This document shows positions 8,849 to 21,021 of a DNA stretch of 35,568 bases, piece by piece. The stretch spans positions 1-35,568 of the forward strand of contig JAUPUN010000015.1 of assembly GCA_030917555.1 (NCBI GenBank). Direction: 5' to 3'. The notes below the pieces were generated by a model, which did no database searches, had not been told where the DNA came from, and worked only from the letters and a program-made list of their open reading frames with translations. The position numbers and the translations under genes are program-made. How positions within the stretch are numbered: position 1 is the first letter of the stretch; every line of letters starts with the position of its first letter. Source of the DNA: Patescibacteria group bacterium (lineage in GTDB: Bacteria > Patescibacteriota > Minisyncoccia > UBA6257).

Positions 8849-9565
8849 ATGGCTACTTTTACTTTAACTGCCAAAACTCGTCAAATTTTTGGCAAAAAGA
8901 ATAAAATTTTAAGAAAACAAGAGATTGTTCCGGCAGTAGTCTATGGAAGAAAAACTCAGCCTTTATCTTTGGAAATAAAGCTCAAGGATTTTTTGCCTAT
9001 TTATCACAAAGCCGGTGAGACAGATTTAATAGATCTAATTATTGAAGATGAAGAGGGTAAAAAAATTACTAAAAAAGTGCTAGTACAAGAAGTAAATCGT
9101 GATTATATTAATAATAAACCTTTGCATCTGGATTTTTATGAAGTAGAAATGGATAAGCCTGTTACTACCCATGTACCTCTTATTTTTGTAGGCGAACCTC
9201 CTGCCGTGAAATTAGGAGGTATTTTAGTAAAATCTATGGATGAATTAGAAATTGAAGCTTTGCCTAAAGATTTACCTCACGCTCTAGAAGTTGATGTTTC
9301 GTCTTTGGATTCTTTTGATAAAAGTGTGTATGTAAGGGATGTTAAATTGCCACCAGGCGTGAAAAGTCTAGTTAAAGAAGATACTCCAATTGCTACCATT
9401 AACGCGCCTTTAACAGAAGAAGAGTTAGAAGAAGAATTAGGTAAGGTTAAGACCGTGGCTGAAGTTGAAGTAGAAGGAGAAAAGAAGGAGGAAAAAGAAG
9501 AGGGTGAAGGAGCCGCACCGACTGAAGAAAAAGAAGAAAATAAAGAAGTTAAATCAGAATCTTAA
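8849..9565 (+). CDS. rplY: 50S ribosomal protein L25 (CTC long form)
   Basis: VPAVVYG, HLDFY, GGIL, ALPKDLP, acidic tail. Confidence 0.95.
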   Translation: MATFTLTAKTRQIFGKKNKILRKQEIVPAVVYGRKTQPLSLEIKLKDFLPIYHKAGETDLIDLIIEDEEGKKITKKVLVQEVNRDYINNKPLHLDFYEVEMDKPVTTHVPLIFVGEPPAVKLGGILVKSMDELEIEALPKDLPHALEVDVSSLDSFDKSVYVRDVKLPPGVKSLVKEDTPIATINAPLTEEELEEELGKVKTVAEVEVEGEKKEEKEEGEGAAPTEEKEENKEVKSES

Positions 9566-19587: not shown

Positions 19588-20199
19588 ATGTTTAATTTGA
19601 TTCCTCCTCTTCTTCTTCTGATAGGTCTAGCAGGTTTAATTTTACTTTTACACCATCAAGAAAATATTATTTCTTCAGAGGAAGAATCAAAAACCTTTAC
19701 CACAAAAGAAAAGAAGGGTAAGAAGAAGTGGTTTGTAAATTCTGCGCAACTTGAAAATGCCAAAGCGAAGATAAAACATTTCTTTGAAAAAATTTTGATA
19801 AGATTAAGAATAATTGTTTTGAGAATGGATAGAATTTTACTGCATTCCCTCGAAACTTTAAGAGGTAAAAACCAATTAGAGAATCTAGAGGATCAAGAAA
19901 AAAGAAAAGGTTTGTTTAGAAAAAATAAGATTAACCTTAAACATTCTACTTTAGATTCTCAATTAGAAAAGATGGATTTAAGAGAGCAGGAGGAAAAACT
20001 ATTATTAAAAATTTTGCACGACGAAAGTAATTTTGATGATTTAGTAAATTTAGCTAGGTTATATCTTTTTGAAAAGGATTTTCCTTCTGCGAGGTGGGCC
20101 TTAATTCAAGCCTATCATTTAGAAGATAATAATAAGATTATCGAAGGTTTATTTTTAGAGCTGGAGGAGAAAGATTCTTCAGCCTTTCCATCGGAATAG
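19588..20199 (+). CDS. Hypothetical membrane-anchored protein with a C-terminal TPR-like repeat
   Basis: N-terminal hydrophobic helix; LVNLARLYLFEKDFPSARWALIQAYHLE resembles one TPR. Confidence 0.65.
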   Translation: MFNLIPPLLLLIGLAGLILLLHHQENIISSEEESKTFTTKEKKGKKKWFVNSAQLENAKAKIKHFFEKILIRLRIIVLRMDRILLHSLETLRGKNQLENLEDQEKRKGLFRKNKINLKHSTLDSQLEKMDLREQEEKLLLKILHDESNFDDLVNLARLYLFEKDFPSARWALIQAYHLEDNNKIIEGLFLELEEKDSSAFPSE

Positions 20200-20281
20200 C
20201 TTAAGAAAAGATCTGATCATTATTCATTTTGAGCCGAGATAGCTCAATGGTAGAGTAACTGTTTTGCGGAGCGAAGCGTAG

Positions 20282-20386
20282 CCCCCACACCAAGCCGCGC
20301 CACCTTAGCTCAATGGTAGAGCAACTGTTTTGTAAACAGTAGGTTCTCGGTTCAAATCCGGGAGGTGGCTCTGATTGGTGTGGGGG
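20282..20386. repeat. Perfect 12-bp inverted repeat bracketing the inner tRNA-Thr
   Basis: CCCCCACACCAA (20282-20293) and TTGGTGTGGGGG (20375-20386). Confidence 0.9.
20299..20370 (+). tRNA. tRNA-Thr(UGU), intact inner copy
   Basis: GCCACCT/AGGTGGC acceptor, GCTC/GAGC D-stem, ACTGT-TT TGT AA-ACAGT, CTCGG-TTCAAAT-CCGGG; no encoded CCA. Confidence 0.95.
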
Positions 20387-20474
20387 TAAAGTTGCGGGTT
20401 TAAATTCCCCTCTTGGCTCCTTGATAAGAGTAAAGGTACAATTGTGGACTGGAAGAAGAGAGTTAGTTTTTGAA

Positions 20475-20561
20475 GGGCAGGTGGCGGAGTAGACAAACGC
20501 ACGAGACTGTAAATCTCGCGGCCTTAGGCCTTCGTAGGTGCAAATCCTACCCTGCCCACCA
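20475..20561 (+). tRNA. tRNA-Tyr(GUA)
   Basis: GGGCAGG/CCTGCCC, CGAGA-CT GTA AA-TCTCG, long variable arm GGCC-TTA-GGCC, encoded CCA. Confidence 0.95.
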
Positions 20562-20581
20562 GTTTCTGTAATTTTTGTTCT

Positions 20582-20654
20582 GCCTGGATAGCTCAGTCGG
20601 TAGAGCACGTCTTTGGTAAAGACGAGGTCGGCGGTTCAATCCCGCCTCCAGGCT
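20582..20654 (+). tRNA. tRNA-Thr(GGU)
   Basis: GCCTGGA/TCCAGGC, CGTCT-TT GGT AA-AGACG, GGCGG-TTCAATC-CCGCC. Confidence 0.96.
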
Positions 20655-20681
20655 CCTCCTAATTATTTTTAAAATTTTAAT

Positions 20682-20840
20682 ATGAAAAAAGAGAATATCG
20701 TTAAATTGCAATGTACAGTTTGTAAACATATTAATTATTACGTTCATAAGAATAAAAAAACAGTGGAGCGTAAATTAGAATTCAAAAAATATTGTCCTTG
20801 GTGCAGAAAGCACACTCTTCATAAGGAAGGGAAGAAATAA
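20682..20840 (+). CDS. rpmG: 50S ribosomal protein L33 (absent from ORF track)
   Basis: Manual translation: MKKENIVKLQCTVCKHINYYVHKNKKTVERKLEFKKYCPWCRKHTLHKEGKK. Confidence 0.96.
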   Translation: MKKENIVKLQCTVCKHINYYVHKNKKTVERKLEFKKYCPWCRKHTLHKEGKK

Positions 20841-20845
20841 CTTCT

Positions 20846-20918
20846 AGGGGCGTAGCTCAATTGGTAGAGTAGCGGTCTCCAAAACCGTTGGTTGCAGGTT
20901 CGAGTCCTGCCGCCCCTG
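20846..20918 (+). tRNA. tRNA-Trp(CCA)
   Basis: AGGGGCG/CGCCCCT, GCGGT-CT CCA AA-ACCGT, GCAGG-TTCGAGT-CCTGC. Confidence 0.96.
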
Positions 20919-20950
20919 CTTTTTCTAAAGATTCAGCAGCTCGGTTTACT

Positions 20951-20985
20951 CTTTAAAAAGTCTCATTCAGTGAGACTTTTTAAAG
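20951..20985 (+). terminator. Intrinsic terminator of the tRNA cluster
   Basis: Perfect 15-bp inverted repeat CTTTAAAAAGTCTCA-TTCAG-TGAGACTTTTTAAAG. Confidence 0.8.
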
Positions 20986-21021
20986 TTGATGGAATAAGTT
21001 TATTTTAAAAGATAACCTAAC

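Follow-up and report, generated by a model that had tools for sequence, protein, structure and literature searches.

A complete tRNA-Thr(UGU) gene nested within a tRNA-Thr-like shell in a Patescibacteria genome

Anatomy of the nested locus

The 35,568-nucleotide stretch of DNA analysed here (the window) is contig JAUPUN010000015.1 of a Patescibacteria group bacterium, and its positions 20233 to 20418 hold one tRNA gene nested within another. The assembly to which the window belongs, labelled G000, has a size of 408 kb and is 95.5% complete; in the following, G-numbers denote genomes, L-numbers loci and C-numbers contigs. The nested structure is 186 bp long and lies on the forward strand, as do all the parts described here. 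It consists of an outer tRNA-Thr(UGU)-like shell that is interrupted between G35 and U36 by a 120-bp insert (20267-20386), and the insert, which contains no open reading frame (ORF), in turn carries an intact tRNA-Thr(UGU) bracketed by the two arms of an inverted repeat. The 5' half of the shell (20233-20266), which is detected by an nhmmer profile of inner tRNA-Thr genes, comprises the acceptor strand GCCGAGA (20233-20239), the D arm GCTC/AATGGTA/GAGT (20242-20256), the 5' anticodon-stem strand ACTGT (20258-20262) and the loop bases TTTG (20263-20266), which end at G35. The insert opens with a linker of 15 nt, CGGAGCGAAGCGTAG (20267-20281), that defines a 'type A' junction and is predicted to fold into an 8-bp hairpin with the U-rich anticodon strand of the shell. 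There follow the 12-bp left arm CCCCCACACCAA (20282-20293), the 5-nt spacer GCCGC (20294-20298), the inner tRNA-Thr(UGU) with its acceptor stem GCCACCT/AGGTGGC (20299-20370), a 4-nt spacer CTGA 3' of the discriminator (20371-20374), with no encoded CCA, and the right arm TTGGTGTGGGGG (20375-20386), a perfect complement of the left arm. The spacer GCCGC differs among relatives and the arms do not. The 3' half of the shell (20387-20418) resumes with TAAA (U36-A39) and GTT and continues through a degenerate T arm, GCGGG/TTTAAAT/TCCCC, to the acceptor strand TCTTGGC (20411-20417) and the discriminator T (20418).

The outer and inner copies are identical at 26/27 nt over 20240-20266, and their acceptor stems differ at four of seven positions. 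GCCGAGA pairs with TCTTGGC at all seven positions, one of them a G:T pair, and the helix can be extended to 9 bp. The 3' anticodon strand of the shell is without six nucleotides, CAGTAG, and the T arm contains a single C:C mismatch and a single G:T pair, with T in place of the usual C56. An earlier note, made from the sequence alone, had described the two shell halves with their 120-bp interruption and TAAA..GTT resumption, the outer acceptor pairing and its extension, the complete inner gene, the near-identity of the copies despite distinct acceptor stems, and the CAGTAG loss together with the T-stem mismatch, and on all these points the sequence agrees with it. The perfect 12-bp inverted repeat around the inner tRNA, which is the strongest GC-rich inverted repeat in the window, was absent from that description. 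The note had also proposed that GTAACT (20255-20260) pairs with AGTTGC (20390-20395) to close the shell, a pairing that is not used in the predicted fold. This fold is a double cloverleaf with a closed outer acceptor helix and a stability of -84.6 kcal/mol (z = -5.3), which is matched by none of 200 shuffled sequences. A promoter and terminator scan of 19900-21000 returned three promoter-like sites against 2.1 expected by chance and is thus uninformative.

The inner gene scores 72.4 bits with the Rfam tRNA model, against a gathering score of 29, and is called as Thr(tgt) by ARAGORN. It is the sole tRNA-Thr(UGU) of the assembly, where a whole-genome ARAGORN search finds 29 tRNAs and one with the anticodon tgt. 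The outer shell is not called by ARAGORN in intron mode (-i0,200). When its halves are joined in silico by removal of 20267-20386, they give no tRNA gene at the default threshold and an anomalous 'tRNA-???' alone at the lowered thresholds tried (70% and 50%). The outer halves thus cannot yield a canonical tRNA even with the insert removed in silico, as the earlier note had held when it stated that splicing would not restore one and proposed ARAGORN with an intron search as a check. Gene finders silently ignore such shells, and nested layers can confuse tRNA counts.

The nested structure is not a misassembly. Another study's DNA run yields a contig of 1100 nt that covers 20100-20700 and therefore the whole nest, with one changed letter and a few indels that all lie outside it, and the nest stretch is present in DNA sequencing runs from 11 studies, the organism occurring in wastewater or digester samples; reads failing to span the structure had been named beforehand as the sign of an assembly error. 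One strain variant carries C>T changes at 20395 and 20410 in the T stem of the shell, which are non-compensatory. No RNA run is listed as containing the stretch, and two runs labelled RNA-Seq, which were flagged as probably DNA, contribute fragments of 124 nt (20260-20383) and 153 nt (20135-20287) that are uninformative on processing.

Thr nests in related genomes and metagenomes

The nest lies in a locus composed of a hypothetical gene, tRNA-Thr and tRNA-Tyr, where relatives keep their tRNA-Thr(UGU); in G016 (L007) a plain, un-nested tRNA-Thr(UGU) is found at the same locus downstream of the same gene. A full Thr nest is present in three of 61 related genomes, namely G024 and G001 of the same family and G047 of another family, and in G026 the 5' half of the shell is kept and the 3' half lost. 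By an exact-signature search the Thr nest occurs in 6/401 genomes of the order and 4/27 of the family. Within the three family members (the window, G001 and G024) the arms and the inner tRNA are nearly invariant and the shells diverge: the G024 shell has the acceptor GCCGATG/CATCGGC and has lost its 5' anticodon strand, and the G001 shell has an insertion of about 70 nt in the D loop. The G047 insert occupies the same G35/U36 site between other arms, CCCCGTTAGATA/TATCTAACGGGG, and its shell is short of only 3 nt.

A metagenome scan yielded 71 Thr-nest loci in 60 distinct contexts, and a genome scan with a loose pattern found at least six tRNA-Thr contexts among the matches listed and added Doudna-, Vogel-, Giovannoni-, Wolfe- and Parcubacteria examples. 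The signature has no matches in viral contigs. Absence of the shell from relatives had been suggested as grounds for regarding the locus as a one-off pseudogene; given the six genomes of the order and the 71 metagenome loci, it is not a one-off. The inner tRNAs have 7/7 acceptor pairs in all 60 contexts. An nhmmer profile of inner tRNA-Thr genes, applied to the 54 contexts with long flanks, detects at least one shell half in 44/54, with halves on both sides in 27/54 and on one side in 17/54, and none in the remaining 10/54. Two or more halves on one side occur in 8/54 contexts, and no half was detected on the opposite strand. The shells include at least 18 different matched acceptor pairs. A loose acceptor-pair test is passed by 40/54 real contexts against a mean of 20.4/54 for mismatched loci, a background that is high because many loci share acceptors.

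In four loci (L152, L154, L185 and L203) two 5' halves follow one another, as do two 3' halves, with a separate set of arms and a separate matching acceptor pair for every layer. Such loci are genuine Russian dolls, and nests therefore reach three or more layers. At syntenic loci the same few acceptors recur in different order: a GCCAGCG shell surrounds a GCCACCT inner tRNA in L206, GCCGAGA lies inside GCCACCT which lies inside GCCAGCG in L156, and GCCAGCG surrounds GCCGAGA in L148, whereas in the window GCCGAGA surrounds GCCACCT. Inner and outer identities thus swap between lineages, and therefore the same allele can be invader or invaded. Conversely, identical arms with the GCCACCT inner tRNA are found within shells of three different acceptors, GCCGAGA (the window and G001), GCCGATG (G024) and GCCAGCG (L206), all of which are syntenic.

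GC-rich hairpins are inserted in many shells. Hairpins of other families, such as CCTGCCTGCC..GGCAGGCAGG, recur in the T arm and the D arm of shells, in the latter often after the AGA of the 3' D-stem strand; examples are L023 (G058:C97:2900-3150) and the shells of L064, L076, L146, L148, L164, L175 and L193. Noted alongside L023 and these hairpin-bearing shells was a tRNA-Phe with a 5' half ahead of it that shares its acceptor strand and is riddled with hairpins. At L008/L024 (G006:C42, about 9320-9407) a relic right arm, CTGATTGGTGCGGGG, lies 3' of a tRNA-Thr(CGU) that has the acceptor GCCAGCG, with neither a left arm nor a shell, which suggests a resolved or decayed nest.

The hairpin element family and its cargo

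Judged from their recurrence, the arms of the window are the terminal inverted repeats of a multi-copy hairpin element family. The arm pair CCCCACACC..GGTGTGGGG occurs in 36/401 genomes of the order, and its reversed control in none. In the five genomes examined the arm motifs are always present as convergent pairs, 20-300 bp apart, with 6-19 pairs per genome, and their terminal inverted repeats are common to many dispersed copies, which is a trait of miniature inverted-repeat transposable elements (MITEs). The cargo between the arms falls into four classes, which are a bare loop of 8-18 nt, an AT-rich filler, a tRNA, or an ORF of 85 aa with a GIY-YIG domain. The AT-rich copies are near-identical and are found at several different loci of G024. 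Among the pairs listed in the five genomes, none brackets an autonomous transposon with its arms 1-3 kb apart, and the largest spacing, of about 300 bp, is that of the GIY-YIG ORF. Arm complementarity has a median of 14 bp and amounts to 776 Watson-Crick pairs, 11 G:T, 2 A:C and 9 other combinations, a conservation consistent with a requirement for a hairpin, whether at the DNA or at the RNA level.

The 85-aa ORF lies between the same arms in G024, G392, G369 and G385 and matches the Pfam GIY-YIG family PF01541 at 65.4 and 59.4 bits. A GIY-YIG gene inside the element is therefore a property of some family members and not of the copy in the window. Across four genomes, perfect inverted repeats of at least 12 nt directly flank 12 of 22 GIY-YIG ORFs, and at 10 of those 12 a C-rich terminus such as ACCC or CCCAG either forms the beginning of the repeats or immediately precedes them; the GIY-YIG copy on C21 of G024 has ACCCCCACACC arms. 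G000 itself encodes four homologues of the 85-aa nuclease, two of them intact (C26:7585-7833 and C24:146-352) and two with stop codons (C12:141-365 and C5:1464-1682). Three of the four are directly flanked by inverted repeats, TTACCCCCATCTTTTA on C26 and ACCCAGCACATAACT on C12 and C5, and the C24 copy lies in a GC-rich tandem-repeat region. The small nuclease may recognise DNA structure rather than sequence. Eight cases of a GIY-YIG ORF near a Thr nest were counted among the metagenome contig matches, a number that is not used as evidence as the rough chance expectation is about five. Many copies with cargo other than tRNA are flanked by a direct repeat of 2 nt, and none is present at the junctions of the window.

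Nests of other tRNA identities

The 19 tRNA-bearing members of the arm family that were fetched carry tRNAs for Gly, Thr, Arg, Ala, Gln, Pro, Val and Met. In a score test for a shell of the same identity, 15/19 have a colinear flank above the 95th percentile of 300 heterologous controls, and by eye all 19 are enclosed by a shell that has the same identity and orientation and is interrupted in its D, anticodon or T loop. The shells are broken near position 15-19 in the D loop, at 30-36 in the anticodon loop or at 47-58 in the T loop. G000 has a second nest, L242, on the minus strand of contig C10 (about 2065-1785), in which an intact tRNA-Met(CAU) is bracketed by CCCCCACACCAT/ATGGTGTGGGGG, arms that belong to this family; its shell is a decayed tRNA-Met-like copy broken in the T arm or loop, and the nest adjoins a tRNA-Asp and the initiator tRNA.

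The tRNA-Gly(CCC) of L274 (G024:C1:57560-58100) is triple-nested in the anticodon loop, with a 4-nt CAAG repeat flanking both pairs of junctions; its outermost shell is identical to the innermost tRNA and the middle layer is different. L250 (G024:C12:2630-2791) is a fresh tRNA-Arg(CCG) nest, the shell of which matches the inner tRNA over 56 nt on the 5' side and with one mismatch on the 3' side. C34 isoacceptors, namely Ala CGC, Pro CGG, Arg CCG/CCU, Gln CUG, Gly CCC, Thr CGU and Val CAC, make up most of the nested tRNAs in the CCCCACACC family (L217-L257), and these may be dispensable where a U34 partner exists.

Proposed origin and spread of the nests

It is likely that the two-layer nest was built by palindrome-armed mobile mini-elements, of a family common in the order, in that the resident gene received a copy of a cassette bringing a replacement tRNA and now decays as the shell. 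The earlier note had left a choice between an element that inserted at the anticodon with a replacement tRNA of the same specificity and a shell retained as a processing or regulatory scaffold. The former is favoured by the multi-copy arm family, by the presence of the same cassette in different shells, by nests of at least three layers and by shells that decay through deletions and hairpin insertions, and the latter finds no support. In outline, a mobile cassette that supplies a substitute tRNA within a dead copy of the gene accounts for the nest.

The junctions point to the way in which the cassette may be copied. In 20 of 21 scorable contexts, with one further near-match, the type A junction TAAA/GTY, at which 6 nt are lost, goes together with a long linker ending in GCGTAG, and in 24/24 contexts the junction TAAA/TAGGTY, at which 3 nt are lost, goes together with a short linker. 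Shell features close to the junction therefore track the cassette type, and the distal acceptor pairs vary (at least 18), which is expected if crossovers take place in those conserved portions of the halves that form the D and T arms. It is proposed that homology-dependent repair would place copies of the cassette in intact tRNA genes of its own kind, with the flanking tRNA halves serving as homology arms, and that the trigger would probably be a break in an exposed loop made in trans by the GIY-YIG nuclease of the family. Such a break is a plausible trigger. The destruction of the target would be tolerated because the cassette supplies a working tRNA of the same identity, after which the cassette would be indispensable and thereby locked in, and the shell would persist as co-transcribed baggage in decay. 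The inner tRNA would itself be a target, and therefore repeated rounds could build Russian dolls. Copying by homologous repair would explain the same-identity rule and the constant orientation, as well as the added layers and those shells that have unmatched acceptor strands (L076, L227).

If so, the nests represent a new lifestyle for a selfish element in an essential single-copy gene, which supplies a complete substitute gene instead of splicing out or restoring a fragment, and which locks itself in. The nest family would also account for orphan tRNA halves, 'pseudo-tRNAs' and patchy distributions of tRNA alleles in genomes of the Candidate Phyla Radiation (CPR). A bolder version, which is tentative and rather unlikely as it stands, is that self-propagating 'tRNA gene drives' repeatedly replace tRNA genes in ultra-small bacteria, each drive comprising the armed cassette, the tRNA halves as homology arms and the 85-aa nuclease as a structure-specific GIY-YIG enzyme that would cut the D, anticodon and T loops of tRNA genes and also rRNA genes. 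In such a drive each invasion would render the cassette essential and recreate its own target, which would explain the Russian dolls, a horizontal turnover of tRNA alleles and possibly the origin of introns and split tRNAs at these loops.

Several observations weigh against an origin by invasion of a resident gene. The L250 nest together with its shell fills an intergenic spacer of which four congeners have an empty version of about 10 nt (L318-L325), and G024 keeps another tRNA-Arg(CCG), 86% identical, at C10:14653-14726; therefore nests are not always invasions of a resident gene, and it appears from this comparison that whole nested units can be insertions. In several fresh nests (L250, L274 and L165) the shell equals the inner tRNA, which fits an intragenomic duplication as well as an invasion. 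No nuclease gene with exactly the arms of the window is present in G000, and therefore mobility at this locus would be past or in trans. As target-site duplications are lacking at the Thr junctions and measure 2 or 4 nt elsewhere, one mechanism may not fit all copies. The perfectly paired acceptors of most shells and the arm mismatches (11 G:T against 2 A:C) would fit selection on RNA structure too. Finally, the proposal gives no account of how a tRNA first entered between the arms.

Alternative explanations

The rival that survives best, although it is unlikely, is a local duplication independent of any element, in which hairpins in or near a tRNA gene would provoke template switching or misaligned repair between sister strands with neither a mobile cassette nor a nuclease. 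Fresh nests with a shell identical to the inner tRNA would be its natural products (L250, L165/L196, L047 and L274, where the outermost layer equals the innermost), and the final 4-5 nt of the acceptor strand (CGGC) recur in many 3' flanks, with the arm helix running into the first bases of the tRNA, in a manner that resembles a microhomology footprint. However, a local copy does not sit well with acceptors that differ between shell and inner tRNA in the window (4/7 positions) and in most nests, or with the same arms and inner tRNA in shells of different acceptors at one syntenic locus. The arms moreover belong to a dispersed multi-copy family that includes a nuclease-coding member, and the layers of one nest carry distinct arms and acceptors (L185, L154 and L203).

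Somewhat less probable again is that the shell was retained as a functional RNA, either as a scaffold for RNase P, RNase Z or RNase III or as a two-piece tRNA-like RNA that would remain after excision of the inner tRNA. The stable predicted fold with its closed outer acceptor helix is in line with such a role, as are the outer acceptors that are fully paired at most loci in many different sequences, the complementarity of the arms that is kept across arm families (G:T 11 against A:C 2), the apparent covariation, by eye, of the last three linker nucleotides with shell positions 28-30 at type B junctions, and the retention of the RtcB RNA ligase by a genome of 408 kb. Matched acceptor pairs are equally expected, however, if the shell was a working tRNA until recently, and the distribution of the nest is sporadic (6/401 genomes of the order, 4/27 of the family). 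Halves are often missing or broken, with 10/54 contexts having no detectable half and 17/54 a half on one side only, and shells have large insertions, deletions and mismatched acceptors. The strain variant with non-compensatory changes in the shell and the multi-layer nests, which have no obvious scaffold logic, likewise argue against the retained scaffold that the earlier note had considered.

That the outer gene is a genuine intron-containing tRNA, from which the 120-nt insert is spliced by a ribozyme or by proteins so that both tRNAs are made, is very improbable and has already been largely refuted. The insert does sit in the anticodon loop, and its position fits the U...G splice-site rule of group I introns if read as U34/G35; a near-complete 3' anticodon strand is kept in a few relatives (L047, L182 and L214), and G000 encodes RtcB. 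On the other side, the Rfam gathering scan of the window gives five tRNA matches only and no intron family, and a group I core is too large for an insert of 120 nt of which 72 nt are a tRNA. The tRNA splicing endonuclease PF01974 has no match in the 95.5% complete G000 in a search whose control was positive in four archaea. No bulge-helix-bulge is seen by eye at the junctions, where the arm helix is continuous and there are no 3-nt bulges, although no dedicated motif search was run. The exons are short of 6 nt, and when joined they give no tRNA. Splicing readings of both the group I and the archaeal type were therefore dropped, on the grounds of the missing Rfam intron, the missing PF01974 and the failure of the joined halves to give a tRNA. 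The RtcB of G000 is full length (515 bits; C2:25192-26487), in a 408-kb genome without a tRNA splicing endonuclease. RtcB is common in bacteria.

An assembly artefact of repeated tRNA sequence, for which the metagenomic origin of the genome and the local 26/27 nt identity of the two copies might speak, can practically be discounted in view of the spanning contig and the runs of 11 studies, the homologous nests in dozens of independent assemblies, and the unique arms and linker that a collapsed repeat could not produce.

Comparison with known systems

Literature searches found no description of a bacterial tRNA within a tRNA, in agreement with the earlier note. The element family is widespread in CPR bacteria and apparently undescribed, and no known system combines a complete cargo tRNA, hairpin arms, insertion in a loop of the same tRNA and repeated nesting. 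Among the closest parallels are the prophages and genomic islands that depend on an integrase, which like the element described here land in a tRNA gene, preserve a working tRNA and leave a partial tRNA relic; tRNA-gene fragments that stem from tRNA-targeting integrative elements are discussed in PMC9897764. These elements measure kilobases, code for an integrase of the tyrosine or serine type and bring along no more of the tRNA than its 3' part, with one direct-repeat fragment at the far end, whereas the element described here measures about 120 bp, has a whole tRNA between inverted repeats, and is wrapped by both halves of the old gene. The insert in the window contains neither an integrase nor an att-type direct repeat, and so lacks what defines a tRNA-targeting integrase element.

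Mobile group I introns and their homing endonucleases in tRNA anticodon loops share with the nests the insertion in the anticodon loop, a GIY-YIG nuclease in the family, halves that could act as homology arms, and a patchy distribution. In contrast to homing introns, the nest has no ribozyme and the host gene is not restored by splicing; it is the cargo tRNA that replaces the function and recreates the target. The nuclease of the nest family also differs from homing endonucleases in that its 85 aa form a catalytic domain only, with no DNA-binding domain. The disrupted tRNA genes of archaea, whether they contain introns or are split or permuted, are interrupted at the same D, anticodon and T loops, and an origin of tRNA disruption in mobile elements has been proposed (PMC3293823). 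Their pieces are rejoined into one working tRNA by the splicing endonuclease and RtcB at a bulge-helix-bulge. In the nest the outer gene is dead and its work falls to a second tRNA, which is complete, and the search for an endonuclease gene in G000 gave no match. Interruptions in these three loops are a long-standing question for the origin of tRNA introns and split tRNAs, for which the nests offer a living model of tRNA disruption.

Non-intron insertions in rRNA genes of CPR bacteria, some of which encode GIY-YIG proteins, were described by Tsurumaki et al. 2024 (PMC11270868). According to the main text of that paper they share with the nests the host group, GIY-YIG ORFs within insertions that are not introns of group I or group II, numerous short insertions that lack an ORF, and a location at the tops or bases of stem-loops in a structured RNA gene. 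The words 'tRNA', 'palindrom', 'inverted repeat' and 'hairpin' do not occur in the main text, which describes neither nested tRNA genes nor the arm family. L230 (G312:C10:2029-2131) is an arm-bounded element with non-tRNA cargo that lies inside an apparent 16S rRNA gene. It ties the arm family to the short unexplained rRNA insertions of CPR bacteria, and in this way the short insertions and the GIY-YIG ORFs of CPR rRNA genes would be connected to one hairpin element family.

The arms themselves resemble repetitive extragenic palindromic (REP) sequences and their paired form, the REPINs, with their REP-associated tyrosine transposases (RAYTs), as well as MITEs, in being short, GC-rich, dispersed multi-copy palindromes, which often form hairpin pairs with variable loops; G:T pairs in the stems, as described for REPs in PMC3733652, are a further likeness. 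In the portions of the REPIN literature examined, neither tRNA cargo nor insertion in a tRNA loop was found described. Like REP and REPIN hosts, G000 and its relatives encode RAYT-like Y1 transposases, homologues of which are present in G000 and in four of the five arm-rich genomes (these exceed the cut-off of PF01797 and reach 40-42 bits with NF047646, for which the cut-off is 80). The CCCC arms are nevertheless not assigned to a RAYT; the RAYT-like genes are not flanked by these arms and have their own, different palindromes, whereas in some copies the CCCC arms enclose the GIY-YIG gene. The RAYT-like HUH/Y1 transposase of G000 itself lies at C11:3126-3359 (L272 1249-1923, minus strand) as an ORF that runs off the end of the contig, and scores 32.6 bits with PF01797 (cut-off 23) and 42.5 bits with NF047646 (cut-off 80).

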